DNA from: an uncultured delta proteobacterium
GTDB taxonomy: Bacteria > Desulfobacterota > Desulfobacteria > Desulfobacterales > Desulfosarcinaceae
Reading direction: 5' to 3'
Length of the DNA stretch: 64,000 bases
Assembly: GCA_963697225.1 (NCBI GenBank)
Contig: CAVONM010000013.1
Location: 42,375-106,374 of the forward strand
The notes under the pieces are model-generated. The model was not told where the DNA came from. It made no database searches and worked only from the letters and a program-made list of their open reading frames with translations. A program made the translations under genes and the position numbers. Below, in pieces: positions 20,126-60,254 of the stretch (position 1 is its first letter; each line of letters starts with the position of its first letter).

Positions 20126-20154
20126 AAGACCCGCCTGCCATTTAATATCTCAAG

Positions 20155-23547: not shown

Positions 23548-23573
23548 CTGGAACGGTAAGGCCAGACACCATC

Positions 23574-41984: not shown

Positions 41985-42012
41985 ACGGACCTCCCAGCTC
42001 ACATGTGGAGCA

Positions 42013-43651: not shown

Positions 43652-43718
43652 TATCTCACCTTTTCGTGCATGATCCTGATTGTGGGTTATCGGCACACGC
43701 TGGAAGGTAAAAAATAGG

Positions 43719-44084
43719 ATGATTGAACAGAAAAGAAGACAACACCCCCGCTGTATGGAAGACACGGCAGTCAACTATCATTTCTTGAACCATTCAACGC
43801 AGCATGAGGCGATCGCGCGGAATTATAGTCGTTTCGGCATGTATTTCGAGGCGCAGCGCTCATTGTCACCGGGAACGATTATCGTCCTACGCAGATACGG
43901 ATGCAAAGATCCTGTCGACCCTGATCTTGCACCTGCTTACTGTTCCGGGGACCGTGAGGCTTCAGAAGCATGCCAGGAACTAAAGACGCAAGTATTTGGT
44001 GAAGTCAAGCGCAGTGAGATGCTTAAGGGGACGACGGAGGAGCGCTTTGGTATCGCTGTCCGTTACATTGGGCCGGCAACATAG
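43719..44084 (+). CDS. Hypothetical protein, possibly PilZ-like
   Basis: RRQHPR...NYSRFGMYFE is loosely similar to PilZ RxxxR / DxSxxG motifs. Weak. Confidence 0.25.
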   Translation: MIEQKRRQHPRCMEDTAVNYHFLNHSTQHEAIARNYSRFGMYFEAQRSLSPGTIIVLRRYGCKDPVDPDLAPAYCSGDREASEACQELKTQVFGEVKRSEMLKGTTEERFGIAVRYIGPAT

Positions 44085-44093
44085 TCCATTCAG

Positions 44094-44807
44094 GTGCGAA
44101 ATTGCTATCCTGACTTTTCATGGATTTCTTTAAGCTTTCAAAACTGTCTGGATAAATGGCAAATGTGTATTAAGACCGTCTCGAGACTCTTACTATGCAC
44201 AATATCGTTCATTTTTTTGAATGGCTTCGTCGGTATGCCAATTCATCCTGCCACTGCTGAACCCGATGCTGAAGAGCTGCTCAACAAACAACGGATTGTA
44301 TACAGAATAAAACCGGAAAGAAGAGGTGGAGAGGCATTCAAACTGATTTACCTCGTACCGGTTCCGGTCGATGTTTTCTGGAGGTTCAAGACCGACTTTG
44401 GTGGTGATTTCCTTCTCAGCAACAGATACATAAAGGAACATCGGCTTATCCTTGAGTCGGGCAATGCCACCGTCACTGAGAACAGCTACTCGAACGCGCC
44501 AAACGAGACGTTCAGATGGCATACGACCCTGTATCCCGATCAACACCGCTTGGATTTCCAGTTGGAAAACCCCCGGGAATGCGGGCAAAAGTTCCACTAT
44601 GGCACGATACGAATGGAACCATTCCGATCATACACCAAAGTCACCCACACGGCTTACTTTGATTTTTTCGGTGCATTTATCTGGGTTAATCTTCGCATCG
44701 CAGGCGGCATGACCTCATTTTTAATGTACACCGCCCGTTGGGAAAGGGATACTGTTTTGCGCTTACGGCACCGATACGAGACTGAACCCTCCCCGCGGCC
44801 GCGATGA
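44094..44807 (+). CDS. Hypothetical secreted protein
   Basis: Signal-peptide-like segment LLLCTISFIFLNGFVGMPIHPATA. No domain recognised. Confidence 0.3.
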   Translation: MRNCYPDFSWISLSFQNCLDKWQMCIKTVSRLLLCTISFIFLNGFVGMPIHPATAEPDAEELLNKQRIVYRIKPERRGGEAFKLIYLVPVPVDVFWRFKTDFGGDFLLSNRYIKEHRLILESGNATVTENSYSNAPNETFRWHTTLYPDQHRLDFQLENPRECGQKFHYGTIRMEPFRSYTKVTHTAYFDFFGAFIWVNLRIAGGMTSFLMYTARWERDTVLRLRHRYETEPSPRPR

Positions 44808-44956
44808 GCGGAATCTCTGCTGTTGCCCCGACAAGGGGCGGGGAATGTGCTCGCTATCGCGGTTCAGCAGGTCAAATGAAGGACTCGAACGCTTGACCAG
44901 ATGCGCCGCACCATAGAAACTGTTAAGACTTCCTTTTATTTCTTCGGGTAACGATT

Positions 44957-45529
44957 GTGAAGGTTTCAATGCGATTGTTCATTTTGTCATTCATTTCAGG
45001 CCTGCTGTCTTACCTCTCGGTTTCATTGCCGCATCTGTTATCCGCTTGGTTTAACCTGTCAGATGATGCCTTTTTTATTCTTCCCGGGTTGTTTTTCGGT
45101 ATGCTCGTCCTCGCACCACGCGTCAATAACGCAAAATTCCGCGCTCTGCGACGCGTGGGCTTGCTGATTTTCAGCTTAGGCGCATGGTATGTGGCGGTGA
45201 CGGTTGGATTCCAGGTGTTACCGTGGGTCCATCAATTGGCGATGCTGTCGTGTGGAATATCGGGAAGTATCGGTGTGCTTCTGCTTATTGCAGCAAGCCG
45301 CTATCTCGTGCCTTTGAATTTGAGTGTTTCTTCTCTTCTGATTGCTCTGCTCGTTGGTTTTATCGGCGGCGGTATCATCGGCATGGCCCTCGTGCAGCCA
45401 AGGACCAGCTTGTCCAGTGAATTGCTCTATTTTTTTGGTTTTCTATTTTGGCATTGCGGTGTTGCCTGGGCGCTTTTAGGCAGACCACGGACCACCGGCA
45501 GCAACAGACCGAGGCGCACTGCGGCATAA
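44957..45529 (+). CDS. Hypothetical polytopic membrane protein (5 predicted TM, several intramembrane His)
   Basis: Hydrophobicity pattern. Lies 300 nt upstream of sdhA on the same strand. Confidence 0.4.
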   Translation: MKVSMRLFILSFISGLLSYLSVSLPHLLSAWFNLSDDAFFILPGLFFGMLVLAPRVNNAKFRALRRVGLLIFSLGAWYVAVTVGFQVLPWVHQLAMLSCGISGSIGVLLLIAASRYLVPLNLSVSSLLIALLVGFIGGGIIGMALVQPRTSLSSELLYFFGFLFWHCGVAWALLGRPRTTGSNRPRRTAA

Positions 45530-45828
45530 ATCGCGCAGCTGCCTGCTAAGGTCTGATCCACCATACCAGACAACCCAATGGGACAGCCGAGAGTGGGGCC
45601 TTGGAAAATATCGAATCGCGAATGCTCGCCTTTCACCCTGAAAAAATTGTTGTGACAATGATCACACAACGCTTCAGTACCACATTTTCAGTTGCTCTGG
45701 AAACAACGTTGGATGAAGATGGAACGAAACGTCGATGTCTTTCTCGGCGTAGGCCCAAAAAAATCCTTGTCTGAATCCTGCGCAATTGGTTTAATGCCGG
45801 ATAATATAACGATTCCAACCACAGGGAG

Positions 45829-47571
45829 GTGCCCGTGATCCATCAATTCGACACGGTAATCGTCGGCTCCGGCGGTGCCGGTCTTTATGCCGCACTGGAA
45901 GCCAGCCAGCAATCCAAAACGGCGGTTCTTTCCAAGCTTTACCCGATCCGCAGCCATACCGGTGCTGCCCAGGGTGGCATCAGCGCCGCATTGGGCAATG
46001 TGGAGGAGGACAAACCCGAATGGCACGCCTTCGACACGGTTAAGGGCGGTGACTACCTCGTTGATCAGCAGGCGGCCAAAATACTTACCGAAGAGGCTGT
46101 CCAGGCAGTCTATGATCTGGAGAACCGCGGCCTGCCATTTAACCGTACACCCGAGGGACGCATCGACCAGCGCCGCTTCGGCGGCCATACGCGCAATTTT
46201 GGCGAAGGCCCCGTTCGTCGGGCCTGCTATGCGGCCGATCGTACGGGTCACATGATCCTGCAGACACTCTATCAGCAGTGTATCAAAAACGAAGTGGCTT
46301 TTTTCGACGAGTTTCAGGTTGTGGATCTGCTCCTGGACGGGACCACCACCCAGGGGGTCGTGGCCGTGGAACTGGCCACCGGTGAGCTGCATGTCTTCGC
46401 CGCCAAGGCCGTCCTGTTCGCAACCGGCGGGTTCGGGCGCATCTTCAAGATCACCTCCAACGCCTACGCCAACACGGGTGACGGCCCGGCGGTATGCGCC
46501 CGGCGAGGGATTCCCTTAGAGGACATGGAGTTCTTCCAGTTTCACCCCACCGGCATCATGGGGTTGGGCATCCTGATTTCCGAAGCGGTGCGCGGGGAAG
46601 GCGGCATCCTGCGCAACCGGGACGGGGAGCGCTTCATGCAGCGCTACTCGCCGACGCTGCTGGATCTGGCCCCCCGCGACATCGTCGCCCGGTCCATACT
46701 GACCGAGATCCGCGCCGGCCAGGGGATTCGCGGGGATCGCAAGATCGATGACTACGTCCATCTGGACGCCACACACCTGGGCAAGGCGGTCCTGGCCAGC
46801 AAACTGCCCGACATCACCGGCTTCTGTAAGACATATCTGGGTATCGATCCGGCCGAGACGCCCATACCGGTGCTGCCTACGGCGCATTATGCCATGGGCG
46901 GAATCCCCACGGATGTTCACGGGCGGGTGATCATGGACGCTGCCGGAACCATTGTCGACGGCCTATACGCGGCCGGGGAGTGTGCATGCGTTTCCGTGCA
47001 TGGGGCCAACCGTTTAGGGACCAACAGCCTGCTCGACCTGGTGGTGTTCGGCCGGCGGGCCGGTCAGCACATCGGCGGCTATGTTAAGCAGGCCGACATG
47101 CCCCAGCCGAACGCAACCGCCGCCGACGAGGCGCGTGCCTTTATCGATCGCTTGACCGACGGCTCATCCGGACCCCACGGTGGGCACATCACGGATGAGA
47201 TGCAGACCACCATGATGGAAAAGGTGGGGATTTATCGCAACGAGAAGGAGATGCAGGCGGCCGTGGATGACATTCAGGCGCTGCGGCAGCGCTACCGGTC
47301 CGTGCGCGTCCAGGACACCGCCAAGCCGTTCAACACCGACCTGCTCGAAATTATCGAGCTGGGCAACCTGCTGGATCTGTCGCTGCTGACGGCAACGGCA
47401 GCCCTCGATCGCCGGGAAAGCCGCGGGGCTCACAGCCGGGAGGATTTCTCGGAAAGGGACGACGGCGACTGGCTCAAGCACTCCCTGGCCTATCTGGAAG
47501 GGGACACGGTCAGGCTTGACTACAAAGCGGTAGACACAAGCATTTGGGAACCCAAACCGCGCACCTATTGA
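45829..47571 (+). CDS. sdhA: Succinate dehydrogenase / fumarate reductase flavoprotein subunit
   Basis: [16 protein letters not shown] motif. The [10 protein letters not shown] histidine is the covalent FAD-attachment site. 580 aa. Confidence 0.95.
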
Positions 47572-49104: not shown

Positions 49105-50106
49105 ATGACCTCTCGAGCCACCCTCGTGCTTGCCAACCACCGCCCGGAAACGATTCCAGCGGCGCAGCAGCTGATGGTCCGCCACGATAGGGTGATTCTC
49201 GAAGAACCGCCCGACCCTCAGTTCCTGTCCATGCTCAACGGGCAGGTGCCCATCGATGCCTACCTCGAGACCCAGGACCTGGAGTATCCTGAATTCAGCC
49301 GCCGCATGGCCGACGTCCTGCGCGAATGCCATCGGGCCGGCACCCGGCTATACCAGATCGAGCCCTTTATCGACCATCTGCTGTCCATTCACGAACGGTT
49401 TGCCGGCGGGGACGGTCCGTCGAACCTGCCGACCGGCACGGCCCTGCACCGGGTCTACCTGGCCGAACGGGAAGCCACCGCCGCATTGATCGACTTTTAC
49501 ACCGTGTCGACCAGCGGACCGTTGGCAGCTACCATCGAGGCGGTCAAGCGGTTCGCCCGCAGCGATGCTCAGCGTTTCGCATTGCGTGACCGGATGCGGG
49601 CAGCGGCCATGGCCGACGTCATCGCGGCCCCCGGCCGCACCTATATCGAGGCCGGGCTGATCCACTTTCCCCTGTGGCACGAGCTCAGGCGGCGGCTGCC
49701 GACAGGCTACCCCCTTCGCGTGCATTTTCTCATGGCCGATGCCGTGCGATCCATGGGCTATCGCAGTCACCTGTATGGCCCCGGAGACCTGCTGACCCTG
49801 CACTACCGTTTTCACCCGCAGCGTCGATTTCAAGGGGAAGATCTTCTCGCGGCGCGTGCGCTGATCTACAGCAAACTGATCGCCAAGGACGAGATTATCG
49901 ACGCCGACGAACCTTATCCGCACACCCGTGATGAATTGGAGGTGGGTGCCGTGACAGCCCGGCTCACCTTGACCGACTGTCGCCGCCTGTACCCGCCGAT
50001 CCGAGGGGCGGCCACCACTACAGCCCGTGAGATGGTGCGGCACTATCTGGGCTTTTTCGAGGAAACAGACGAGCCATCCATGAACACAGGGAAAATACCG
50101 CGATGA
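49105..50106 (+). CDS. Hypothetical protein (333 aa), first gene of the inositol/glucosamine operon
   Basis: ORF. ATGA overlap with the HAD gene. No domain recognised. Confidence 0.45.
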   Translation: MTSRATLVLANHRPETIPAAQQLMVRHDRVILEEPPDPQFLSMLNGQVPIDAYLETQDLEYPEFSRRMADVLRECHRAGTRLYQIEPFIDHLLSIHERFAGGDGPSNLPTGTALHRVYLAEREATAALIDFYTVSTSGPLAATIEAVKRFARSDAQRFALRDRMRAAAMADVIAAPGRTYIEAGLIHFPLWHELRRRLPTGYPLRVHFLMADAVRSMGYRSHLYGPGDLLTLHYRFHPQRRFQGEDLLAARALIYSKLIAKDEIIDADEPYPHTRDELEVGAVTARLTLTDCRRLYPPIRGAATTTAREMVRHYLGFFEETDEPSMNTGKIPR

Positions 50107-50756
50107 TCAAAGCGATGCTATTCGATTTCGGGCTGGTTATCTCGACCCCGCGTTCGACGGACTGCTTTCGCGCATACGAACGGGATCTGGGGATCGCCGA
50201 GGGCAGCATCAACCCAATCATGTTCGACGGCCCGGCCTGGCAGGACGCCCTGATCGGTCGGTTGACCATGCAGGCCTACTGGCGTGCCATCGGCCCGTCG
50301 CTGGGCCTGACCAGGCAACGGCAGATCGACGCCTTCCGCTGTCGCTACTACCATGACGAATCCGTCAACCCAGACGTCCTGCGCCTGATTCGGCGGCTCC
50401 ACGGCACTTACTACTTGGCGGTGCTTTCCAATCATCCGCCGGGCCTGGATCAATGGCTGAGCGACTGGGGCATTCGGGATCTTTTCGACGTGATTTACTG
50501 TTCCGGTGACGAGGGCCGGGTCAAACCCGATCCAGCGGTGTACCAAGCCACCCTCGACCGCCTGGGGGTACGGCCGGCCGAAGCCGTATTTATCGACGAT
50601 ACCGCGGGGCACGTGACGGCCGCGCAAGCCTTGGGCATTCACGGGATTGTCTTCAGTGATGCCCACCGTCTCGAAAGGGATCTGGATACCCTTTTGGGTG
50701 AGGACCAGTCAGCTCATCTGCCACCGCGCACCATCGAGACCCCGTATGAAGGTTAA
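50103..50756 (+). CDS. HAD-superfamily hydrolase (beta-phosphoglucomutase/phosphatase-like)
   Basis: MLFDFGLV (motif I DxG variant) and FIDDTAGHV (motif IV). Confidence 0.7.
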   Translation: MIKAMLFDFGLVISTPRSTDCFRAYERDLGIAEGSINPIMFDGPAWQDALIGRLTMQAYWRAIGPSLGLTRQRQIDAFRCRYYHDESVNPDVLRLIRRLHGTYYLAVLSNHPPGLDQWLSDWGIRDLFDVIYCSGDEGRVKPDPAVYQATLDRLGVRPAEAVFIDDTAGHVTAAQALGIHGIVFSDAHRLERDLDTLLGEDQSAHLPPRTIETPYEG

Positions 50757-50760
50757 ACCC

Positions 50761-51483
50761 ATGACGCATCGGAAGACCGCGAAAAGCCTGCTTGGAGCCC
50801 TCCTCCTGGAAGGCGGTGGTGAGTTCGGTGGCAGGATGGCGGACCCCGACCGCGAAGCCCTGTCTGCTGCAGGTGGTCCAAGCGCAAGGGTCGCCATCAT
50901 CCCGGCCGCAGCTGCACCGGACCACAATGACGAACGGGCCGGACAGAACGCGGTGCGCTGGTTTCGACATTTAGGCGCCTTGCAGGTCGAAAGCCTGCCC
51001 CTGGTCGACCGGGTCTCAGCCAATGACCCCGCCATTGCCGACCGCCTGCTCAAGGCCCGACTGATCTACCTGCTGGGCGGGTTTCCCGCTCACCTGGCCC
51101 TCAGCCTTCAGGGCAGCCGCAGCTGGCAGGCCGTGCTGCAGGCTTATAAATCCGGCGCAGTGATTGCCGGCAGCAGTGCCGGAGCCATGGTGCTCTGCAG
51201 CGATTATTACGACCCGGCGGGCCACGCGGTCGCCCCCGGCCTCGGACTTCTTTCCCGCACCTGTGTCATTCCCCATCACGAGACCGTTGGCTGGCGCTGG
51301 GCGCCCGTTTTACAAAAAGCGCTGCCGGACGATGTGCTGTTGGGAATCGATGAAGAAACCGGTGCCCTGAACCTGCCCGCGCAAGACCACTGGCGAGTCT
51401 ACGGCAAAGGGCGGGTAACGCTTTACCGCAAAAACCGGGTGACAGTTTTTGGCCCCGGCCAGACATTCCGTTTGGATGGTTGA
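50761..51483 (+). CDS. Peptidase S51-family protein (cyanophycinase / dipeptidase E-like)
   Basis: IYLLGGFP and AVIAGSSAGAMVL (Ser nucleophile elbow) motifs. Confidence 0.6.
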   Translation: MTHRKTAKSLLGALLLEGGGEFGGRMADPDREALSAAGGPSARVAIIPAAAAPDHNDERAGQNAVRWFRHLGALQVESLPLVDRVSANDPAIADRLLKARLIYLLGGFPAHLALSLQGSRSWQAVLQAYKSGAVIAGSSAGAMVLCSDYYDPAGHAVAPGLGLLSRTCVIPHHETVGWRWAPVLQKALPDDVLLGIDEETGALNLPAQDHWRVYGKGRVTLYRKNRVTVFGPGQTFRLDG

Positions 51484-51699
51484 GGCAACCGCCACGCCAA
51501 TGTGGGAAAACCGGTCACACCGCCTTGAGCGGAATTGCTCAGGACAGTCGAGATCGGGTCGGCTTTTGACTTGCATTCCGAAATCCTCTATACTCATTTG
51601 AATTCTATCCGGACTCAGCGGTATGGTCTTGCCATCCGATGACCTATCGGATCCGGCCATGGCGATTACTCTGAAGCGCTCCCACTGCCCTGTTCAATC

Positions 51700-52965
51700 A
51701 TGAAAGGCCCCATGGCAAATCCTCATGGAAAAATAGTTCTCATGGGTTCCGGTGAGCTGACGGCCACCATGGTGGAGGTGCACAAGGGCCTTTTGCAGCA
51801 GTTGCCGGGAACACCCCGGGCCGTATTTCTGGACACCCCGGCCGGTTTTCAACTCAACGTGGACCAGATATCGGCCCGGGCGGCCGACTATTTTCGGACC
51901 CGTGTCCGCCACCCGCTGACCGTGGCCTCGTTCAAGTCTAACACGCCCACCAGCGACTATGACGACCTTCAGGCAAACCGCGTGTTGCGCCAGGCCGACT
52001 TTGTTCTCATCGGGCCGGGCAGCCCGACCTATGCCTTGCGGCAATGGCAGCAATCGCCCGTACCCGATCTGCTCGCTGACTGCGTAATCACGGGTGGATG
52101 CCTGGTCGCTGCCAGCGCCGCCGCCCTGACCATGGGCCGCTTCACCCTGCCGGTATACGAAATCTACAAGGTCGGGCAGGATCCGCACTGGATTGACGGC
52201 CTGGACCTGTTGGGCCGCTTCGGCCTGAACCTGGTGGTGGTGCCCCACTGGAACAACGCCGAAGGCGGCAACCACGACACGCGTTTCTGCTTTATGGGCG
52301 CCACGCGGTTCGATGCCATGGCGGACATGCTGCCGCACCGACTACCCATACTGGGCCTGGACGAACATACCGCCTGCATCCTGGACCTGGCCACCGATCA
52401 GGCCGAGGTCAAGGGCATCGGCGGCATCACCGTGCGAACCCCCGACGGCGCGATGACGGTCAAGAGCGGTGACCGTTTTGCCCTGTCGGTGTTGCGGGAA
52501 GGGTCGATCACACCCAATCGGATCGTTGAACCACCCGAATCGGAATCCGTGCCACTGCCGACGGATGCCAACCAAGCGTTCTGGCTGAGCGCGCACGACC
52601 TGGTAGCCCGCTTCGAGACAGGCCTCGATCAAGGGGACGCGCGCGCCGCGACGAACGCACTCTTGGAGTTCGACCGCATCGTCTGGTGTGCCCAACACGG
52701 GCTTGAGGATGAGGCGGTCGTTGCCCAGGCCCGCGACACATTACGCGATATGATCGTTCTTTTGGGAAACCAGATGGCCGCCTCACCCAAACTTCGGGAG
52801 GAGCGCCTGGCCCCGCTGGTGGAAGCGCTGCTGGGTCTGCGCCAGAAGCTGCGCCGGGAAGCGCAATGGGACGCGGCCGACATGCTGCGTGCCGCCCTGA
52901 GCGCCATCGGCATTCAGGTGGAAGACACCCCGGACGGCCATCGCTGGCACCTGACATCGCCATAG
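51700..52965 (+). CDS. S51/class-I-glutamine-amidotransferase-like domain fused to a C-terminal domain resembling the anticodon-binding C-terminus of cysteinyl-tRNA synthetase
   Basis: N-terminal KIVLMGSGEL...FVLIGPGSPTYAL has the S51-like fold, with the nucleophile-elbow Ser apparently replaced (TGGCLVAASAA). The C-terminal LRQKLRREAQWDAADMLRAALSAIGIQVEDTPDGHRWHL parallels the E. coli CysRS C-terminus (...[24 protein letters not shown], from memory). Confidence 0.55.
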   Translation: MKGPMANPHGKIVLMGSGELTATMVEVHKGLLQQLPGTPRAVFLDTPAGFQLNVDQISARAADYFRTRVRHPLTVASFKSNTPTSDYDDLQANRVLRQADFVLIGPGSPTYALRQWQQSPVPDLLADCVITGGCLVAASAAALTMGRFTLPVYEIYKVGQDPHWIDGLDLLGRFGLNLVVVPHWNNAEGGNHDTRFCFMGATRFDAMADMLPHRLPILGLDEHTACILDLATDQAEVKGIGGITVRTPDGAMTVKSGDRFALSVLREGSITPNRIVEPPESESVPLPTDANQAFWLSAHDLVARFETGLDQGDARAATNALLEFDRIVWCAQHGLEDEAVVAQARDTLRDMIVLLGNQMAASPKLREERLAPLVEALLGLRQKLRREAQWDAADMLRAALSAIGIQVEDTPDGHRWHLTSP

Positions 52966-53015
52966 TCGATGCAATGCCTGACAGCGGCCATCCATTCACT
53001 GAGGAATCGATAACC

Positions 53016-54668
53016 ATGAAGCAACACCCCCAGCTATCTCTGCTGTTCGTCATGCAGGCATCGCCATCCGGGCCGGCGCCGTTGGTCGCCTATCTTGACG
53101 CGATCCCCCATGTCCGAGTGGATGTTGAACCGGTTTTGCCCGAAAATCTGAGCGACTACGACGTCTTGATCACGCTGGGGACTGCGGCAGGTGCCGTCGG
53201 GCGGGAATTGGAAGATTTTGTCCATGCGGGTGGTGGTTGGCTGGTCGCAGTCGATGCATCACCCGGTCCCCTGCCGGCCCTGCTGGGCGTCGCCGTCGAG
53301 CCGCCCGGACCGGAGGCTGAATTGCGCGTGCTGTTTGAAAGGCCTGATCACCCCTTGGGCGTTCGGCTGCCGGATGCGCTCTATCTGACCGGGCGTTACC
53401 AGGTGCTGACGCCCACCGATGATGACACCGAAACCCTGCTCTATGCCGACTGGCACTATGCGCATACCCCGGTGCTCACCCAGCGCCCGGTGGGCCGGGG
53501 CCAGGTGGCCTGTACCACCCTGCAGGCCCTTGACCATCCTGTGGTGCAGCAAATTTTCTACCGCCTGCTTGTCAATCTCGCCGGCCGCCCGATCACGCCG
53601 GATCCACTAAGCGTGGGGATTTTGGGCTACGCCCCCTCCGTGGGACGGCTGCACGGCCTGGGTATCGACCACACCGCGGGGCTGGAACTGCGGGCCGTGT
53701 GCGACCTGAACCCGGCGCGCAGCGATCAGGCGCGCAAGGATTTCCCGGATATCCGGGTTCTGCCCACGGCTGACGCGCTGGCTGCGGCTGACGGAATCGA
53801 TCTGGTCATTGTGGCCACGCCCCCCAATATCCATGCCGACAATTGCCTGCAGATGATGGCGGCCGGAAAACATGTGGTTTGCGAAAAACCGCTGGCCCTG
53901 AACCGCCGGGAGACCGATGCCCTGCAGAACCTGGCCCAGCAAAACCAGGTCCATTTGAGCTGTCACCAGAACCGCCGGTGGGACCCGGATTACCTCACGA
54001 TCAAAGATAGCCTGAAACGAGGGCTCATCGGCGAGCTGTTCTACCTGGAAACCTTCGTTGGCGACTATCACCACCCCTGCGGGTACTGGCATTCGCACGC
54101 TTCCGTCTCCGGCGGCACCAGCTATGACTGGGGCGCCCACTATCTTGACTGGATCGTCAGCCTGATTCAGCGGCCGATTACGGCGGTGATCGGCACCCGC
54201 CACAAACGGGTCTGGCGGGATGTGACCAATGCCGACCAGGAACGCATTCAAATTCGCTTTGAAGGCGGCATCGAGGCCGAATTTATGCATTCCGACATCG
54301 CCGCGGCCCGCAAGCCGAAATGGTATCTGCTGGGCACTAGCGGGGCGATCACCGGCCGCTGGCAGGATGTGCATACCCACACCATCGATAGAGACCATTA
54401 CTACCGCCGCCACGATATCCCGGTTACCGAGATGACGCCGGAGATGGCCATTTCCTATCGCCGGGCCGAGGGTGAGATCATCCGCATCACCCCGGCCGTG
54501 GCCGAGCGTGAGCCCTATTGCTTCCACCGCAACCTGGCCGACCATCTCCTGCTGGGCGAACCGATCACCGCCCCTTTGGCCGATTCCGTCCAAGTGGTGG
54601 CCATTTTGGAAGCTGCTGCCCGCTCCATGCAGCAGGGAGGCACGCTGGAGGCGCTCGATGGCATCTGA
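53016..54668 (+). CDS. ThuA-like (class I GATase-like) domain fused to a Gfo/Idh/MocA-family NAD(P) oxidoreductase
   Basis: N-terminal about 230 aa are ThuA-like (YDVLITLGTAAG...GGGWLVAVDAS). The C-terminal half has a VGILGYAPSVGRLHG Rossmann motif and the EKP motif (HVVCEKPLA) of Gfo/Idh/MocA. Confidence 0.65.
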   Translation: MKQHPQLSLLFVMQASPSGPAPLVAYLDAIPHVRVDVEPVLPENLSDYDVLITLGTAAGAVGRELEDFVHAGGGWLVAVDASPGPLPALLGVAVEPPGPEAELRVLFERPDHPLGVRLPDALYLTGRYQVLTPTDDDTETLLYADWHYAHTPVLTQRPVGRGQVACTTLQALDHPVVQQIFYRLLVNLAGRPITPDPLSVGILGYAPSVGRLHGLGIDHTAGLELRAVCDLNPARSDQARKDFPDIRVLPTADALAAADGIDLVIVATPPNIHADNCLQMMAAGKHVVCEKPLALNRRETDALQNLAQQNQVHLSCHQNRRWDPDYLTIKDSLKRGLIGELFYLETFVGDYHHPCGYWHSHASVSGGTSYDWGAHYLDWIVSLIQRPITAVIGTRHKRVWRDVTNADQERIQIRFEGGIEAEFMHSDIAAARKPKWYLLGTSGAITGRWQDVHTHTIDRDHYYRRHDIPVTEMTPEMAISYRRAEGEIIRITPAVAEREPYCFHRNLADHLLLGEPITAPLADSVQVVAILEAAARSMQQGGTLEALDGI

Positions 54669-55668
54669 GATCCAATGGGGCATTCTGGGCAACGCCACCA
54701 TCGCCCGCAAATGCGTCATCGGCGCCATCCAGAAATCGCGCAACGGTTGCGTGCGGGCACTGGCCAGCCGATCGCCTGAAAAAGCGCGTGACGTGGCCAG
54801 GCAGCACGGTATTCCCAACCTGTATGGGAGCTATCAGGCGCTGCTCGACGATCCCGCGGTAACGGCGGTTTATCTTCCGCTGCCCAATCACCTGCATTGG
54901 CCCTGGACCCAAAAAGCGCTGGCGGCCGGCAAACACGTCCTGTGTGAAAAGCCAATCGCCTGCAACGCCCAGGAAGCTGAATCGATGGCCGCCGCTGCCC
55001 GCAAGGCCGACCGGCTGCTGATGGAGGCCTTCATGTATCGCTTTCATCCGCGCAGCCGGCGCATCAAGCAGATGGTCGTGCAGGACGAGATCGGCAGGCC
55101 CAGGCTCATCCGGGCGGCGTTTAGCTACCCCATGGCCGCAAAGCTCCTACAGAGCGGTGACAACGCCCGCCTTCGGCCGGAAATGGGCGGCGGTGCGTTA
55201 CTGGACGTGGGCTGTTATGGGGTCAGCGTGGCCCGCTGGTTGATGAACGCCGAACCGGTGAGCGTCCAGGCCCAGGCATCCTTTCATCCTTCCGGCGTGG
55301 ACTGGCACCTGATTGGCAGCCTCTATTTCGGCCCCCGGCGCATGGCCGTCGTCGAAGCCAGTTTTATTGCAGCCCTGCAGCAGACCTACAGCGTGGTGGG
55401 GGACCGCGGGGCCATCGAGCTGCCCCACGACGCCTTTATCCCCTGGGAGAAAGACGCCGTGTTCGTGCTGCGCGGCCTTGACGACGAGACCGGCACCCGG
55501 CAGACCATCGCCGGTGTTGACGAATATCAATTGATGGTGGAGCATTTTGCCGACGCCGTGCTGGATCTTTCACCACTGGCCTATTCACCCGAAGAGAGCA
55601 TCGCCAACATGCGGGTGTTGGACGCCCTGTCCCGGGCCGCCCGCAGCGGCCGGCGTGAGGCGATATGA
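54658..55668 (+). CDS. Gfo/Idh/MocA-family oxidoreductase (inositol/sugar dehydrogenase-like)
   Basis: WGILGNATIARK Rossmann motif and HVLCEKPIA motif. Confidence 0.8.
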   Translation: MASEIQWGILGNATIARKCVIGAIQKSRNGCVRALASRSPEKARDVARQHGIPNLYGSYQALLDDPAVTAVYLPLPNHLHWPWTQKALAAGKHVLCEKPIACNAQEAESMAAAARKADRLLMEAFMYRFHPRSRRIKQMVVQDEIGRPRLIRAAFSYPMAAKLLQSGDNARLRPEMGGGALLDVGCYGVSVARWLMNAEPVSVQAQASFHPSGVDWHLIGSLYFGPRRMAVVEASFIAALQQTYSVVGDRGAIELPHDAFIPWEKDAVFVLRGLDDETGTRQTIAGVDEYQLMVEHFADAVLDLSPLAYSPEESIANMRVLDALSRAARSGRREAI

Positions 55669-56726
55669 CCGGCGACCCAAAGTATCCGCAAGGGATGGAA
55701 ACGGAAAACGGCCCCATGCGCAGCGCAGCAGCGACCCGCCACGATGTTCGGACCGAAACCCTGGAGAGCCTGGCAAGATACTGGCAAGGTGGCGAACATA
55801 CGCTGAAATGGGCCTGCCCCTTCGTTCTGCCACAATGGCTGAGCGCCTGGTGGCCAATCGCTGACAGGGATTGGTCACCATATATCCTGTCCGTATACCA
55901 CCAAGGGCTGCTGGCTGGCATCGCCCCGCTGATGCGAAGAGACCACCAGGCCCGTCTCATCGGTGATGCCGACCTCTGCGATCATCTGGATGTCGTCGTG
56001 GTCCCGCAGCATGCCGAGAAATTTTGCCAGGCCCTGCTCGATGGTCTGGCGCGTGACGGGGTCCGAGAGCTGGAGTTGTCGCCAATTCGCCAGGATTCAT
56101 CGGTGATGACCCACCTGATACCCATGGCCGAAGAATGGGGTGTGCGGGTCAGCCATGACCACCTTGCCCAATTGTTTGCCATGCCACTGCCCGCCAGTTG
56201 GGAGTCCTATCTTCAGGGTCTGAGTGGCAAGGAGCGCCATGAGATCCGGCGAAAGATCAGACGGCTTCACCAAGCCGGCCGCGTGACCCTGCGCTGCATT
56301 GGTCATGCTGCCGAGGTGCCGGCGGCCATGGAGACCTTTTTGACCCTGTTCAAGGCCAACCGAACCGACAAGGCGGCCTTCATGACCGACAAGATGATGG
56401 CCTTTTTTCTCCGATTGGCCGCTAACCTGGCCGCATCGGATCTCTTGAAACTGTACTTTTTGGATCTGGACGGCCGGCCCGTCGCGGCAACCCTGTGCAT
56501 CGATGACCGGTCCACGGTCTACCTTTACAACAACGGCTATGATGCGGCGTACCAGTCCCTGAGCATCGGCCTGCTGAGCAAGGTGCTAACCATAAAGGCC
56601 AGCATCGGTGACGGCCGGCAGGTCTATGATTTTCTCAAGGGCTCGGAAGCATACAAAAGTAGATTGGGCGGCCAGCCGATAGATGTTTACGGTTGCTCGC
56701 TGGAATTCGGCCAAACTGGGAAATGA
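55665..56726 (+). CDS. GNAT-fold acyltransferase of the FemAB-like/CelD/BioF2-like type (Acetyltransf_6)
   Basis: The C-terminal LKLYFLDLDGRPVAATLCIDDRSTVYLYNNGYD...SIGLLSKVL...YDFLKGSEAYKSRLGGQP pattern is characteristic of this family. ATGA overlap with the upstream gene. Confidence 0.6.
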   Translation: MTGDPKYPQGMETENGPMRSAAATRHDVRTETLESLARYWQGGEHTLKWACPFVLPQWLSAWWPIADRDWSPYILSVYHQGLLAGIAPLMRRDHQARLIGDADLCDHLDVVVVPQHAEKFCQALLDGLARDGVRELELSPIRQDSSVMTHLIPMAEEWGVRVSHDHLAQLFAMPLPASWESYLQGLSGKERHEIRRKIRRLHQAGRVTLRCIGHAAEVPAAMETFLTLFKANRTDKAAFMTDKMMAFFLRLAANLAASDLLKLYFLDLDGRPVAATLCIDDRSTVYLYNNGYDAAYQSLSIGLLSKVLTIKASIGDGRQVYDFLKGSEAYKSRLGGQPIDVYGCSLEFGQTGK

Positions 56727-57963
56727 GATGTCGATGAAGCCACTGACCATCGCCATGCTCAGCATCCATTCCAGCCCTATCGGAGAGCTGGGCACCCGTG
56801 ACACCGGCGGCATGAGCGTCTACGTGCGGGAACTGGCCCGCGAAATGGGCAACATGGGGCACCAGGTGGATATTTTCACCCATGCGTGGCGCGACGATGC
56901 ATCGACGGTAGTGGTCCTGGCCACCCGTGTCCGCCTGATATCACTCAGCATCAGCCACCGCGGTCCGCATTCCAAGGCCGGTCTTTATGCCCATGCGGGC
57001 GACCATGCTGCAACCATCGAGGGCTTTCGCCGACACCAAGCGCGCACCTACGACCTGATCCACAGCCATTACTGGCTTTCGGGTCACGTGGGCCGGCTGC
57101 TCAAGGAGCGCTGGCAGCGGCCCCACGCGATTACCTTTCATACGCTGGGCGCTGCGAAGGCCGAGACCGGTGTCGGCGCTGTCGAACCCACCCTTCGGCT
57201 GGCGGTTGAAAAGGAGCTGGTATTGGCCTGTGACGGTCTGCTGGCACCCTGTGAGGGTGAAAAAACCAATTTGATGCATTATTATGGAGCAGATGCAGCC
57301 AAAATCGCCATGGTCCCCGGTGGCGTTGATGTTGACCACTTTCGGCCCATGGACAAAACCATGGCCCGGCGGCGGCTGGGAATTGACCCCCGCGTCAGCT
57401 TGCTGCTTGCCATCGGGCGGCTGACACCCCAGAAGGGACAGGACCGGATCATCGAGGCGCTGCCCCACATTGAAACCGGGAGCCGGCCGCAGTTGCTGGT
57501 GGTGGGAGGCAACGGAGACGGTGACCCTGAACGGCGACGCCTGCAGAATATTGCCGCCGCAGCGGGCGTGCAGGAACGGGTAACCTTTTGCGGCAGCGTT
57601 GCCCACCGCGACCTGCCGGTGTATTATGCGGCGGCGGATGTCGTCGTGCTGGCCTCACATTATGAAAGCTTCGGGCTGGTGGGTATAGAGGCCCTGGCAT
57701 GCGGGCGGCCGGTGGTTTCCACCCCGGTGGGTGTGATGGCCGAACTGGCCCGCCTGCAGCGACCCGGCATTATCACTGCCGAGGGGTCACCGGCCGCCTT
57801 GGCCGCAGGTATCACCATCGCCGGGGATCGGGCGCTGGACTGGCCCGACCACATCATTCGCCAGAGCGTCAGGGACTATGGCTGGACCAACGCGACTGCG
57901 GCGGCCCTGGCGGCCTACCGGGCCGCCATGCAGGTCGCCCCTGCCGTCCATGGGTGGCCATGA
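56727..57963 (+). CDS. GT4 glycosyltransferase, MshA/BshA-like (predicted UDP-GlcNAc:inositol-phosphate or similar N-acetylhexosaminyl transferase)
   Basis: N-terminal IAMLSIHSSPIGELGTRDTGGMSVYV and C-terminal EXXXXE-type ESFGLVGIEALACGRPVV motifs of GT4 retaining transferases. Organisation closely resembles MshA. Confidence 0.75.
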
Positions 57964-58069
57964 ATGCCCGGTCATTCAGCCGATGCATTGCGTCTCACAT
58001 TGATCGGTAACACACCCATCACGTTTCATCCGCCATCGTCCAACCCGGGCGGATGATGAAAGGATAACC

Positions 58070-58804
58070 ATGAAACTGATTGTTCATGACACGATTCCGG
58101 ACGCGCCGGCACGGAAGCCCTGTGACGTCCTCGTGCTCTCGGCGCATCCGGATGACGCCGAATTCGGGGCTGCCGGGACGGTCATTCGCTGGGTCGATGA
58201 GGGCCGGCGCATCGTTTATGCCATTGCCACCAATGGTGACAAAGGTACCAGCGATCGCACCCTGACCCCTGAGGTGCTGGCCGCCATTCGCCGGGACGAA
58301 CAGGCACGCGCGGCCACATCTATCGGCGTCCACGAAATCGTTTACCTGGGATACCCGGATCAGGGTCTCGAGGATACCCCCGCGCTGCGCAAGGACGTCG
58401 TTCGCCTGTTGCGGATTTTTCGCCCCCGCATACTGGTCACTTCGGATCCGTATCGGCGCTATCTTTGGCACCGGGACCATCGCATCATCGGCCAGGTGGC
58501 CATGGATGCCGTGTTTCCTTACGCCCGGGACCACATGGCCTATCCCGATCTTCTCGAAAAGGGCCTGGAACCCCACAAGGTGGCAGAGGTCTTCTTCTGG
58601 GGGACCGAAGACATCGACTACCGCTCGGATATTACCGACACATTCGAGCGTAAAATCAAAGCCCTGCGCTGCCACGCCAGCCAGATGAAAGAATTCAGGT
58701 TTTCGGACCCGGTGGAATGGTTAAAGGAGCGCTGTCGCGAGATGGCCCAAGGCTCCGATTTTGAACTGGCCGAAGGGTTTCATCGGGTGGCCCTGCCGAT
58801 GTAG
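58070..58804 (+). CDS. PIG-L/LmbE-family N-acetylglucosaminyl deacetylase (MshB/BshB-like)
   Basis: VLSAHPDDAEFGAAGT zinc-binding motif. HRDH present. Confidence 0.8.
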   Translation: MKLIVHDTIPDAPARKPCDVLVLSAHPDDAEFGAAGTVIRWVDEGRRIVYAIATNGDKGTSDRTLTPEVLAAIRRDEQARAATSIGVHEIVYLGYPDQGLEDTPALRKDVVRLLRIFRPRILVTSDPYRRYLWHRDHRIIGQVAMDAVFPYARDHMAYPDLLEKGLEPHKVAEVFFWGTEDIDYRSDITDTFERKIKALRCHASQMKEFRFSDPVEWLKERCREMAQGSDFELAEGFHRVALPM

Positions 58805-58889
58805 CCCTTTCTGGTGATTCCCATTCATACGGTCGGCATCCGCGGCTGCGGCTGCCTCTCCATTAAAACCTAAAAAAGGTGATAAACGC

Positions 58890-60254
58890 GTGTACAAACG
58901 ATCCGAAGCACCACACAACGCCAGGAACAGCCCCACCCCCGTTGCGCGGCCTGAAGGTCGCCTGGGGGTGTTGATTCCGGGTATGGGGGCAGTGGCCACC
59001 ACGTTTATCGGCGGTGTGCTGGCAATTCGCCGCGGCCTGGGCAAACCGATCGGCGCCCTGTCCCAAATGGGTACCCTGTCGATGGGCGGCGCCCCGTCCG
59101 AGGGCGACCGCCTGATCCGGGATGTGGTTCCCCTGGCCCGGATGGACGACCTCGTTTTCGGCGGCTGGGACATCTTCGATGACGACATGTATGCCGCTGC
59201 CGTCACTGCCGGGGTGCTGGCACAACCGACCCTGGATGGCATCCGATCGGACCTGCAGGCCATACGGCCAATGCCGGCAGTGTTTGACAGGCGTTATGTC
59301 AACCGGCTCGACGGACGCCACACCAAGTCGGGACGCTCCAAAATGGATCTTGCCGATCAGGTTCGTGCGGACATCCGGGCTTTCAAGGCCGCCAACGGCC
59401 TTGCACGCATGGTCATGATCTGGTGCGGCAGCACCGAAGTCTATTCCCAGCCAGGGCCGGTGCACCAATCCGTGAGCAGTTTTGAAGCGGGTCTGAAAAC
59501 CGACGATCCGGGAATCGCCCCCAGCATGATATACGCCTATGCGGCCATCCAGGAAGGTCTGCCATTTGTCAACGGCGCCCCCAATTTGACAGAGGAGATT
59601 CCCGCCCTGCAGGCCATGGCGCAGCAACACCAGGTGCCCCTGAGCGGCAAGGATTTCAAGACCGGTCAGACCATGATCAAAACCGTTCTGGCACCCGCTT
59701 TCAGGGCGCGGCTGCTGGGGGTCGCCGGCTGGTTTTCCACCAACATATTAGGCAATCGGGACGGCGAGGTGCTGGATGACCCACAGGCGCTGAAGGCCAA
59801 AGAGATCAGTAAACTGAGCGCGTTGGAGCATATCCTGCAGCCGGGATTATTCCCCGATCTTTACGCGGATCTGCATCACAGTGTCAAAATCAACTATTAC
59901 CCGCCGCGGGGTGACAACAAAGAAGGCTGGGACAATATCGATATTTTCGGCTGGCTCGGGTATCCCATGCAAATCAAGATCAATTTTCTGTGCCGCGACA
60001 GCATCCTGGCTGCCCCACTGGTATTGGATGTGGCCTTGTTTATGGATCTGGCGGCACGCGCCGGTTGGCACGGCCCGCAGGACTGGCTCTCTTTTTATTA
60101 CAAAAGCCCGATTACCCCCGCGGGCGTATCGGTAGAACACGATCTGTTTAAACAACTCGAGCGATTGACTGCCAGGCTGAACCAGGCCGCGCAGGCGGCC
60201 GTTCGAAGCAAGGCGTTTAGTGGCAACCACCAAAAAAGGAGACTTTCAACATGA
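58890..60254 (+). CDS. ino1: myo-Inositol-3-phosphate synthase (bacterial/archaeal type)
   Basis: 454 aa. N-terminal NAD-binding LGVLIPGMGAVATTFIGGV and conserved MIPS core motifs (NGAPNL, SGKDFKTGQT). Confidence 0.8.
   Translation: MYKRSEAPHNARNSPTPVARPEGRLGVLIPGMGAVATTFIGGVLAIRRGLGKPIGALSQMGTLSMGGAPSEGDRLIRDVVPLARMDDLVFGGWDIFDDDMYAAAVTAGVLAQPTLDGIRSDLQAIRPMPAVFDRRYVNRLDGRHTKSGRSKMDLADQVRADIRAFKAANGLARMVMIWCGSTEVYSQPGPVHQSVSSFEAGLKTDDPGIAPSMIYAYAAIQEGLPFVNGAPNLTEEIPALQAMAQQHQVPLSGKDFKTGQTMIKTVLAPAFRARLLGVAGWFSTNILGNRDGEVLDDPQALKAKEISKLSALEHILQPGLFPDLYADLHHSVKINYYPPRGDNKEGWDNIDIFGWLGYPMQIKINFLCRDSILAAPLVLDVALFMDLAARAGWHGPQDWLSFYYKSPITPAGVSVEHDLFKQLERLTARLNQAAQAAVRSKAFSGNHQKRRLST

Follow-up and report, generated by a model that had tools for sequence, protein, structure and literature searches.

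An intact open reading frame on the forward strand (51700..52965, +) encodes a protein of 421 amino acid residues in which a peptidase S51 hydrolase domain is fused to a module derived from cysteinyl-tRNA synthetase (CysRS), corresponding to the part of CysRS that reads the tRNA-Cys anticodon. Homologue starts make an ATG at 51712 a possible alternative start. A look-up of the exact protein sequence found no record of it, probably as the result of a different start call. The fusion had been proposed in an earlier note and is real: Pfam, NCBIfam, PDB profile and Foldseek searches agree on it. Within the window (the whole 64,000-nucleotide stretch of DNA analysed here), the gene belongs to an operon that resembles the mycothiol pathway, and our main reading is that GlcN-inositol (GlcN-Ins) is cysteinylated in a Cys-tRNA-Cys-dependent manner, in place of the reaction carried out by MshC. 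We give this reading a probability of roughly 45%. The earlier note had interpreted the locus along similar lines, and that interpretation is partly supported.

The two halves of the protein are separated by a variable linker (aa 272-288; 52513..52563, +), which falls in variable alignment columns and has a pLDDT below 50 in the AF2 model. The model as a whole is of moderate quality (pLDDT 73), with active-site loops below 50 and an unreliable inter-domain orientation. Downstream of the linker, a helical region (aa 290-369; 52567..52806, +) corresponds to the CysRS helical-bundle domain: it forms four long helices in the model and aligns with CysRS residues 338-412 when the family profile is compared with the PDB, and it was matched only via full-length NCBIfam cysS models and CysRS structures. 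It is followed by the CysS_C alpha/beta anticodon-binding domain (aa 370-416; 52807..52947, +), identified by Pfam (CysS_C, PF23493; 27.6 bits against a cut-off of 23, E 3e-6), by the PDB profile matches and by the G34-contact residues described below. The same Pfam model matched 39 of 45 diverse family members, with a best E-value of 1.6e-11. In the NCBIfam cysS models, residues 300-417 of the target align with approximately the last 115 model positions, and the whole cysteine--tRNA ligase models (TIGR00435 / NF011108) gave 20 bits, where their cut-offs are 340 and 780.

Searches of known structures gave the same picture. A phmmer search of the PDB initiated with the target returned CysRS chains only, and the family profile matched four different CysRS structures at E-values from 2e-7 to 3e-4, including 8qhp (2e-7), 3tqo (8e-7) and E. 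coli 1li5/1u0b (1.4e-6). Profile positions 298-414 align with CysRS residues 338-459, and the matches to 3tqo and 1li5 extend over approximately 120 residues. A Foldseek search with the AF2 model, the kind of structural comparison that the earlier note had suggested, retrieved 1u0b_B, the CysRS:tRNA-Cys complex (E 6e-4, 129 columns, 27% identity). The likeness to CysRS that had been claimed for the C-terminus therefore stands, but it covers approximately 120 residues rather than the last ~35; the DALR_2 domain (PF09190), which had also been put forward, was matched at E ≤0.01 neither in the target nor in the 45 homologues.

In the 1u0b complex, E. coli CysRS contacts G34 through R423, R427, W432, A435, D436, R439 and D451 (PMC12684709 Table S2). 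These residues align with R381, R385, W390, A393, D394, R397 and D409 of the target and all seven are identical, in a comparison that covers G34 only, a base carried by many tRNAs. Among the 45 homologues, which share 32-55% identity, positions 381, 385 and 390 hold arginine (45/45), arginine or lysine (45/45) and an aromatic residue (44/45), and conservation extends to D394 (45/45), R397 (45/45) and D409 (44/45). The C-terminal half of the target is net acidic, and the G34 contacts supply the only conserved basic positions of the tail. The same region is equally acidic in the CysRS of E. coli (-12) and Coxiella (-6), and because of this we dropped net charge as an argument against RNA binding. 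Like E. coli CysRS (1li5/1u0b), the target combines a helical bundle with an alpha/beta anticodon-binding domain and keeps all G34 contacts; unlike CysRS, it lacks the Rossmann catalytic domain, the CP insertion and the stem-contact fold, and an S51 fold occupies the place of the catalytic domain. Judged by these residues, the tail is a putative tRNA-Cys binder.

The N-terminal domain (aa 12-270; 51733..52509, +) has the S51 fold that the earlier note had recognised, as seen in Pfam, in Foldseek matches to PepE and cyanophycinase and in alignments. The Pfam match is marginal (Peptidase_S51, PF03575; aa 12-226, 24.4 bits against a cut-off of 23.9, E 2.6e-5), and only 21 of the 45 diverse homologues match this model at E ≤0.01. 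Foldseek, with the model of the target as query, found the PepE structure 6a4r (E 1.2e-12, TM target 0.74), 6nqc (1.6e-12) and the cyanophycinase 3en0 (6.7e-10). The nucleophile-elbow serine had been thought to be replaced; in fact Ser139 (codon AGC, 52114..52116, +; motif A-A-S-A-A) is retained, together with His183 (52246..52248, +; PHWNN) and Glu222 (52363..52365, +; GLDEHTA), and only the flanking glycines have become alanines. In the alignment that HMMER gave with 6nqc, an S51 structure, 'GGclvaaSaaaltvG' stands opposite 'GGSLAGCSAGAMVLS' and 'vvpHwnn' opposite 'VIPHFNK'. A stand-alone, cyanophycinase-like S51 paralogue with a GSSAGA elbow is encoded just upstream (50746..51483, +; 25% identical to the N-domain of the target), and BLASTP aligned AASAAA with GSSAGA, VVPHW with VIPHH and LDEHT with IDEET. 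Conservation in the diverse homologues is 44/45 for Ser139, 45/45 for His183 and 44/45 for Glu222, the last of which we take to be the triad acid, as in the S51 family generally. We thus propose a putative Ser139-His183-Glu222 triad of the S51 type.

S51 enzymes such as PepE and cyanophycinase are hydrolases that work via an acyl-enzyme and release one aminoacyl or dipeptidyl unit from the N-terminus of their substrate. The target shares with them the fold and the Ser-His-Glu positions, but it is only 13-20% identical, has an A-A-S-A-A elbow in place of G-x-S-A-G, and adds a 150-aa tRNA-synthetase tail as well as two invariant, family-specific inserts, PVYEIYKVG and HWNNAEGGxHDTRFC(F/Y)MG, which lie beside the nucleophile and the histidine.

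The genes around the target bear out the GlcN-inositol operon with a FemAB-like gene that the earlier note had described. Upstream lies a HAD-IA phosphatase, a candidate GlcNAc-Ins-P phosphatase (50103..50756, +). Downstream are a ThuA-like domain fused to a Gfo/Idh/MocA oxidoreductase (53016..54668, +), a second Gfo/Idh/MocA oxidoreductase (54658..55668, +), the FemAB-like gene (55665..56726, +), a GT4 glycosyltransferase (56728..57963, +), a PIG-L/LmbE-family GlcNAc de-N-acetylase (58070..58804, +) and a myo-inositol-1-phosphate synthase (58890..60254, +). The operon is tightly packed, with gene overlaps of 4-11 nt, the second oxidoreductase overlapping its neighbours by 11 nt and 4 nt. By NCBIfam and PDB comparison, the GT4 protein is closest to MshA, the UDP-GlcNAc:inositol-phosphate GlcNAc transferase: its best PDB match is C. 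glutamicum MshA (3c48/3c4q, E 1e-57), and it scores 271 bits with the MshA model TIGR03449, under the cut-off of 462. The PIG-L protein scores 38.7 bits with the NCBIfam MshB model, under the cut-off of 224. Since the MshA, MshB and MshD-like proteins all fall below the NCBIfam equivalog cut-offs and MshC is absent, the system is mycothiol-like rather than a canonical mycothiol pathway.

No MshC-like gene was found among the cluster genes scanned against NCBIfam or Pfam. The target itself shows no sequence resemblance to MshC or the catalytic domain of CysRS: neither it nor the family profile matched an MshC chain in the PDB at E ≤1, and there was no NCBIfam MshC match. MshC, the Cys:GlcN-Ins ligase, is a CysRS paralogue that keeps the catalytic half of the synthetase, depends on ATP and zinc and is not known to require a tRNA; the target would be its complement. 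The step proposed for the target is the same and it too lies beside MshA-like and deacetylase genes, but it keeps only the anticodon-reading C-terminal part of CysRS. Because the operon is mycothiol-like but lacks the usual cysteine ligase, a charged tRNA suggests itself as the source of cysteine.

A role in anti-phage defence, raised by a 'GT4-conflict' Pfam match, was rejected, as six operon proteins gave no PADLOC match. No riboswitch or T-box scored above its gathering threshold in the 216-nt gap upstream of the target or in the whole window, the sole sub-threshold match being irrelevant. A promoter scan found one 10/12 promoter-like site at 51566-51594; the seven promoter-like sites found compare with 3.9 ± 1.7 in shuffles and are only modestly above expectation.

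The FemAB-like partner is a double-GNAT protein (Pfam Acetyltransf_6 / FemAB_like) whose predicted fold resembles Fem/MprF more than it does acyl-CoA GNATs. Its sequence profile has no solved relative in the PDB, so that its assignment to the FemX/MprF structural class rests on structure prediction. The protein carries a conserved C-terminal E-x-Y-K-x-R-L-G-G motif, which we take to resemble the catalytic lysine motif of Fem enzymes. By predicted structure it belongs with the FemX/MprF-class aminoacyl-tRNA-dependent transferases and is a putative user of an aminoacyl-tRNA donor. Unlike this partner, no known member of the class (FemX/FemA, the MprF C-domain, Sba18/Sbb17) is paired with an anticodon-reading protein. 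For known FemX-class enzymes the acceptor arm suffices and they act alone (PMC2655667), so that there is no obvious need for a further protein that handles tRNA.

The target family is widespread and uncharacterised. It comprises at least 592 species and at least 449 clusters at 50% identity with E ≤1e-30, with metagenome-assembled members assigned to Desulfosarcina, Desulfatibacillum, Desulfofustis, Desulfatitalea and Thermodesulfovibrio; its members are named only 'peptidase E' or 'hypothetical', and a full-text literature search found no description of an S51 domain joined to a CysRS tail. Long open reading frames at five loci (L040, L058, L070, L074 and L078), which seemed to fuse the target with further domains, proved to be spurious upstream extensions. 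At 38 loci of the Desulfobacterota/Nitrospirota/Nitrospinota type, the FemAB-like gene, whose co-occurrence with the target the earlier note had considered worth following, is the most constant neighbour (33/38), followed by GT4 (32/38) and PIG-L (25/38), whereas inositol-phosphate synthase adjoins in only three. The gap between the target and the FemAB-like gene ranges from -4 to ~600 nt, or ~1.5-3 kb where Gfo genes are inserted. At one locus (L007) the FemAB-like gene is missing although the target, GT4 and PIG-L are present. Other loci add genes to the set: a mycoredoxin-TrxR fusion stands first in the operon at L083, L084, L026 and L036, a GloB-like MBL gene is present at nine loci, and an MshD-like tandem GNAT occurs at L004 and L084 (106 bits at L084 against the NCBIfam cut-off of 163).

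In Actinomycetota, Chloroflexota and Firmicutes the family is also found without GT4, PIG-L or FemAB-like neighbours. Acidimicrobium at least has a normal MSH pathway (PMC4255298). A conserved ZnuABC-like cluster adjoins the target gene in Acidimicrobiia. The idea of a zinc-sparing MshC substitute in this group was set aside: the cluster is convergently transcribed and may reflect lineage synteny. No tRNA-Cys gene is present in the window or near any of the 82 loci; at five Actinomycetota loci, the gene downstream of the target is a tRNA-Glu gene.

The analysis shows which two folds the target combines, which residues are conserved, how the genes are linked and to which structural class the partner belongs; from there we infer tRNA-Cys binding, Cys-tRNA as the candidate donor, GlcN-Ins as the candidate acceptor and a possible division of labour between the proteins. 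The MshA-like glycosyltransferase, the HAD phosphatase, the PIG-L protein and inositol-phosphate synthase would build GlcN-inositol. The C-terminal third of the target (aa ~290-421) would dock tRNA-Cys by its GCA anticodon, as proposed from the intact residues that grip G34. The S51 domain, given its place in the position of the CysRS catalytic domain and the flexible linker, would have access to the aminoacyl ester that ends Cys-tRNA-Cys on its 3' side, where a Cys-O-Ser139 acyl-enzyme would form and be resolved by an amine or by water. In this gene set, which also includes the FemX/MprF-class partner, the amine of GlcN-inositol would then be cysteinylated from Cys-tRNA-Cys, which is the MshC step of Actinobacteria, and the end product would be a mycothiol-like low-molecular-weight thiol.

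We favour an S51 site that acts catalytically on the aminoacyl end over one that belongs to a mere adaptor. In the fullest version of this mechanism, the S51 domain would be a new class of aminoacyl-tRNA-dependent transferase, in which Ser139, guided by the CysRS-derived anticodon reader, accepts cysteine from Cys-tRNA-Cys as an acyl-enzyme and hands it on to GlcN-inositol, or to a related aminosugar, at the amine; it would replace MshC independently of ATP and zinc. A mycothiol-like thiol, widespread but unrecognised until now, would then exist in phyla that include Desulfobacterota and Nitrospirota. This version is tentative, with the odds leaning against it. We know of no S51 enzyme that acts on aminoacyl-tRNA. 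A 2026 review of aminoacyl-tRNA-dependent enzymes includes none either and describes four classes that borrow charged tRNA, namely whole-aaRS-like proteins, FemX-type GNATs, cyclodipeptide synthases and PEARLs (PMC12945691); an isolated anticodon module on a serine-hydrolase fold matches none of the four. The nearest parallels are SbzA (IleRS-like) and AcmF (AlaRS-like), in which parts of tRNA synthetases are likewise recycled and a small molecule receives the amino acid of a charged tRNA (PMC12945691). These are, however, whole-synthetase homologues with a catalytic core, whereas the target carries the anticodon module alone on an unrelated hydrolase fold.

It is also conceivable, if on balance unlikely, that the FemX-class partner performs the transfer itself (Cys-tRNA-Cys + GlcN-Ins -> Cys-GlcN-Ins) and that the target selects and delivers tRNA-Cys by its anticodon, perhaps in competition with EF-Tu, its S51 site having a secondary role, for instance in hydrolysing products that are wrong or over-extended and so editing them. 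The partner is structurally in the aminoacyl-tRNA transferase class and often translationally coupled to the target, a FemX-like enzyme would be a precedented catalyst for this step (PMC12945691), and one aminoacylation step seems enough where a separate MshD-like GNAT is present, as in L004 and L084. A pure adaptor, however, would hardly be so constrained that the Ser-His-Glu triad and the inserts are near-invariant across phyla, even where no FemX-like neighbour exists; moreover, L007 does without the partner, and known Fem enzymes manage without an anticodon-reading companion.

An improbable alternative places the target outside the pathway, as a stand-alone tRNA-Cys enzyme: either a deacylase or quality-control factor for aminoacyl-tRNA-Cys bearing wrong, damaged or S-modified cysteine, or an amidase that frees cysteine from a thiol store upon binding uncharged tRNA-Cys, the linkage in Desulfobacterota reflecting shared cysteine and thiol physiology. 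The breadth of the family, its high, housekeeping-like sequence conservation and the many members in Firmicutes, Chloroflexota and Actinomycetota that lie amid unrelated housekeeping genes are consistent with such a role, as is the fact that S51 enzymes hydrolyse off an N-terminal aminoacyl unit. Yet at 33 of the 38 Gram-negative-type loci the gene directly precedes those for the FemX-like protein, GT4 and PIG-L, and stop and start codons frequently overlap or nearly do so; this fold is absent from known editing factors, and CysRS is not known to require editing. We give least credence to the idea that the CysRS-like tail is an evolutionary leftover which now serves protein-protein contacts or binds another ligand, in an otherwise ordinary S51 peptidase or amidase whose substrate is a peptide or the Cys-GlcN amide and which has nothing to do with tRNA: the acidic C-terminal half and the lack of a linked tRNA-Cys gene would fit, but the residues conserved are exactly the base-contacting ones (R381, R385, D394, R397, D409 and the aromatic 390) and also the sole conserved basic positions of the tail, the equivalent CysRS regions are as acidic, and the neighbour is an aminoacyl-tRNA-class enzyme.

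Little is known about the main low-molecular-weight thiols of sulfate reducers, of Nitrospirota and of numerous further anaerobes. The operon type described here is a concrete candidate for a thiol pathway, with an MshA-like transferase, a deacetylase and a cysteine-adding step, to which some loci add a mycoredoxin-TrxR fusion, glyoxalase-II-like and MshD-like genes. Its HAD gene offers a candidate for the GlcNAc-Ins-P phosphatase, a step to which no gene is known to have been assigned. If Cys-tRNA-dependent cysteinylation of GlcN-inositol is true, it would be a new route by which charged tRNA is borrowed for small-molecule synthesis. A function established for one member of the family would carry over to the annotation of thousands of genes.

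The target gene (51700-52965, + strand) encodes a protein of 421 amino acid residues whose C-terminal half resembles the anticodon module of cysteinyl-tRNA synthetase (CysRS), as the earlier note had claimed; sequence and structure comparisons agree on this point. Pfam places the CysS_C domain ("cysteinyl-tRNA ligase anticodon binding domain") at residues 370-416 (E 3e-6; 27.6 bits, gathering score 23), and residues 300-417 pair with the last ~115 positions of full-length cysS models in NCBIfam. CysRS chains were the sole phmmer matches of the target among all PDB sequences, and a profile of 31 target homologues retrieved 8qhp (E 2.3e-7), 3tqo (8e-7) and E. coli 1li5/1u0b (1.4e-6), its positions 298-414 corresponding to CysRS residues 338-459, the helical bundle and terminal alpha/beta domain. 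The structural search that had been proposed gave the same answer: the AF2 model (pLDDT 73, pTM 0.60) matches 1u0b_B, from the CysRS:tRNA-Cys complex, over 129 columns (E 6e-4). The proposed comparison with DALR_2 yielded nothing, as Pfam gives no match to that domain in the target or in 45 diverse homologues. No MshC chain among the PDB sequences was matched by the target (phmmer) or by the profile.

CysRS residues touching the anticodon base G34 in 1u0b are R423, R427, W432, A435, D436, R439 and D451 (PMC12684709, Table S2). Their equivalents in the target, R381, R385, W390, A393, D394, R397 and D409, are all identical (phmmer alignment, offset 42). Among the 45 homologues, R381, D394 and R397 are each present in 45/45 and D409 in 44/45, while position 385 is R in 43 and K in 2, position 390 is W in 27, F in 9 and Y in 8, and position 393 is A in 34, S in 8 and G in 3. 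R381, R385 and R397 are the only conserved basic positions across the whole C-terminal half. With the G34-contact positions kept across the homologues, the base-reading residues of the tail have thus been preserved by selection. Net charge is uninformative about RNA binding either way, since the C-terminal half of the target (about -6.5) and the same stretches of E. coli (-12) and Coxiella (-6) CysRS are likewise acidic.

The S51 fold proposed for the N-terminal half is only just detected by Pfam (Peptidase_S51, 24.4 bits against a threshold of 23.9) and is clear in Foldseek matches of the model to PepE (6a4r, E 1e-12), acI-B1 peptidase (6nqc, 2e-12) and cyanophycinase (3en0, 7e-10). The earlier suggestion that the nucleophile serine is replaced has to be withdrawn, as Ser139 aligns with the S51 serine. 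In the HMMER alignment with 6nqc, the family motifs AASAAA and PHWNN correspond to GCSAGA and PHFNK; against the adjacent S51 paralogue, AASAAA, VVPHW and LDEHT correspond to GSSAGA, VIPHH and IDEET. The sole change in the nucleophile elbow is from Gly to Ala in the flanking small residues. Ser139 (44/45), His183 (45/45) and Glu222 (44/45) are retained in homologues 32-55% identical to the target, and the domain is, judged by its residues, an active-looking hydrolase. Two invariant inserts relative to the paralogue, PVYEIYKVG by the serine and HWNNAEGGxHDTRFC(F/Y)MG by the histidine, are located in low-confidence loops of the AF2 model and look like a family-specific substrate site.

Ten genes, assigned to families by Pfam and NCBIfam, run on one strand (+) from 49105 to 60254, several overlapping by 4-11 nt. 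The ORF at the operon head (49105-50106, 333 aa) matches nothing in Pfam, NCBIfam or PADLOC; it overlaps the next gene by 4 nt, and a counterpart (90% identity) was found only in the closest relative, locus L003. The next gene, for a HAD-IA phosphatase (50103-50756), would be co-transcribed with the pathway and may supply the GlcNAc-Ins-P phosphatase, a step for which we know of no assigned enzyme in mycothiol synthesis. Directly upstream of the target, the stand-alone S51 paralogue (50746-51483), whose elbow is the canonical GSSAGA, might act as its partner or as a subunit of a heterodimer. After the target come a ThuA-Gfo/Idh/MocA fusion (53016-54668), a second Gfo/Idh/MocA oxidoreductase (54658-55668), an Acetyltransf_6/FemAB_like protein (AcT6, 55665-56726), a GT4 glycosyltransferase (56728-57963), a PIG-L deacetylase (58070-58804) and inositol-1-phosphate synthase (58890-60254). 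About 1.2 kb past the operon end, a convergent gene (61458-62060, - strand) presumably encodes an Fe/Mn superoxide dismutase, as recognised by its N-terminal sequence motifs, which would fit an oxidative-stress neighbourhood. Elsewhere the window carries, all on the - strand, three unusual fusions: of AMP-binding enzyme, 2Fe-2S ferredoxin and RACo-like ASKHA domains (8160-11177), of an MMPL transporter and a SAM methyltransferase (12456-15479) and of FakA-like Dak2 and DegV domains (35553-37394). G+C content is 0.49-0.50 at 42001-46000, 0.52-0.56 at 16001-24000 and ~0.60 elsewhere; the two low stretches may be acquired segments.

The ten window proteins were compared with 82 fetched loci of relatives. 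Among the 38 Desulfobacterota/Nitrospirota-type loci with at least 3.5 kb 3' of the target, AcT6 is found in 33, GT4 in 32 and PIG-L in 25; less frequent are the Gfo pair (13/38), S51 paralogue (11/38), HAD phosphatase (9/38) and inositol-phosphate synthase (3/38). The gap from target to AcT6 is -4 to ~600 nt, or otherwise holds a Gfo insert of ~1.5-3 kb. By these counts and spacing, the conserved core is therefore target-AcT6-GT4-PIG-L. One locus, L007, has no AcT6 across 21 kb and retains the target, Gfo pair, GT4 and PIG-L. One MAG (GCA_029979785.1) holds two cluster copies, which may represent a paralogous cluster or a strain mix; the second (contig JARPNQ010001084) reads Gfo2 (cut at the contig end)-AcT6-GT4-PIG-L-MIPS-4HBT thioesterase. 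Loci L020 and L053 likewise have a hotdog-fold thioesterase close to the target.

With few exceptions, the operon neighbours were not seen in the Actinomycetota, Chloroflexota and Firmicutes loci among the 82, where the surrounding genes vary and are of a housekeeping type. What stands out is a recurrent alpha/beta-hydrolase gene upstream of the target, the ThuA-Gfo/Gfo pair upstream in L066 (6825-9123) and L079 (6929-9069), two GT4 genes 3' in L055 (Dehalococcoidia) and a small GNAT 3' in L053 (Syntrophomonadaceae). The pair (53016-55668 in the window) thus also accompanies the target in some Actinomycetota without the remaining operon; its role might, for instance, lie in inositol or glycoside oxidation. 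In five Actinomycetota loci, tRNA-Glu(UUC) lies 15-70 nt 3' of the target and on its strand (L060 2813, L061 1487, L071 11227, L077 11280, L079 11327), followed by tRNA-Asp and tRNA-Phe where the contig goes on, probably as lineage synteny. No tRNA-Cys gene was found near the target in any of the 82 loci. In Acidimicrobiia-type loci (L062, L064, L066, L068, L069, L072, L075, L080, L081), a ZnuABC/TroABC-like metal ABC transporter is convergent 3' of the target, and a LarE-like PP-loop gene and an F420-type LLM oxidoreductase lie upstream; we considered that the target might there be zinc-sparing relative to the zinc enzyme MshC.

The GT4 protein has MshA as its best NCBIfam match (271 bits; next family 114, BshA only 49) and finds its best PDB matches in 3c48/3c4q, entries for C. 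glutamicum MshA, over its full length (E 1e-57). For the PIG-L protein, a GlcNAc de-N-acetylase, the nearest match is archaeal diacetylchitobiose deacetylase, with BshB1 next. Contexts anchored on AcT6 homologues revealed further thiol genes. A 413-427-aa fusion of a mycoredoxin-like glutaredoxin (TIGR02200, 77 bits) and a thioredoxin-reductase-like flavoprotein (TIGR01292, 313 bits) heads the operon in L083 (717-1958) and L084 (4142-5425) and lies 5' of the S51 paralogue and target in L026 (7884-9122) and L036 (7928-9151); it may serve the pathway thiol as a dedicated disulfide reductase or redoxin. The fusion is not in the window. Nine loci have a GloB-like (glyoxalase II) metallo-beta-lactamase-fold gene by the operon, and two of them, L004 and L084, also carry a tandem GNAT that matches mycothiol synthase MshD best (TIGR03448, 106 bits, full length); the two genes occupy 3155-3898 and 2208-3140 in L084 and 8235-8882 and 7259-8188 in L004. 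As all these scores fall under equivalog cut-offs, they point to a pathway that is mycothiol-like rather than canonical mycothiol. Among the cluster genes scanned against NCBIfam or Pfam none was MshC-like, and the target and AcT6 fill the slot where a cysteine-adding enzyme is expected.

Sequence profiles of AcT6 found no solved relative in the PDB. Its confident AF2 model (31 homologues, pLDDT 90) has its best Foldseek TM-scores with FemX (0.60-0.64), the aminoacyl-tRNA-dependent peptide synthases Sbb17/Sba18, crystallised with the aminosugar streptothrisamine, and the MprF C-domain. Orf11, a relative of Sbb17/Sba18, glycylates streptothrisamine from Gly-tRNA (PMC12945691), and these enzymes offer a close chemical precedent for GlcN-Ins aminoacylation. 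Recognition by characterised Fem enzymes is limited to the acceptor arm and the amino acid (PMC2655667).

The target gene is tightly and repeatedly linked to genes for an aminoacyl-tRNA-class transferase, a GlcNAc-transferase and a deacetylase. In the reading we favour, with a probability of about 0.45, the CysRS module would dock tRNA-Cys and the S51 site would act on the aminoacyl ester at the tRNA's opposite end; a Ser139 acyl-enzyme would form and be resolved by an amine, and Cys-tRNA-Cys would cysteinylate GlcN-Ins, standing in for MshC. A catalytic S51 site is favoured because the triad and inserts are near-invariant even without an adjacent FemX-like gene, because L007 lacks AcT6, and because S51 enzymes remove one N-terminal aminoacyl unit, such as an aminoacyl-tRNA ester presents. 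Nearly as good, if somewhat unlikely in itself, is an explanation in which the FemX-like enzyme does the chemistry and selection and delivery of tRNA-Cys fall to the target; the existence of a separate MshD-like gene speaks for it. That the target is a stand-alone deacylase or a tRNA-gated amidase we consider distinctly unlikely. A relic tail is improbable, as preserved base-reading residues would be hard to explain in a relic domain.

Of the 8,000 candidates listed by a word-indexed search with the target, 7,993 scored E ≤0.001, so that at least this many matches exist. The best 120 of these matches are 57-93% identical, nearly all ~400-445 aa long, most already annotated with PF23493, and named "peptidase E", "cyanophycinase-like exopeptidase" or "hypothetical". 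An exhaustive search of 50%-identity representatives gave 1,739 clusters at E ≤1e-3, of which 449 reach E ≤1e-30, with full-length matches down to 35% identity, and at least 592 relatives were confirmed in species-representative genomes. The relatives listed include Desulfobacterota, Nitrospirota, Nitrospinota, Aminicenantes, Syntrophomonadaceae, Chloroflexota, Actinomycetota (mostly Acidimicrobiia) and Dormibacteria. A full-text literature search found no description of the S51 and CysRS-module architecture, in keeping with the earlier note. A 2026 review (PMC12945691) counts only aaRS-like enzymes, FemX-type GNATs, CDPSs and PEARLs as aminoacyl-tRNA-dependent enzymes, and a 2022 review of aaRS paralogues lists for CysRS only CysRS* and MshC. 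The parts are all known. Their union, in which an anticodon module stands isolated on a serine-hydrolase fold and is paired with a FemX-class enzyme within a thiol operon lacking MshC, is undescribed as far as we could find. The architecture occurs very commonly among anaerobic and sediment lineages, and if its S51 domain is a transferase, it would constitute a new enzyme class.
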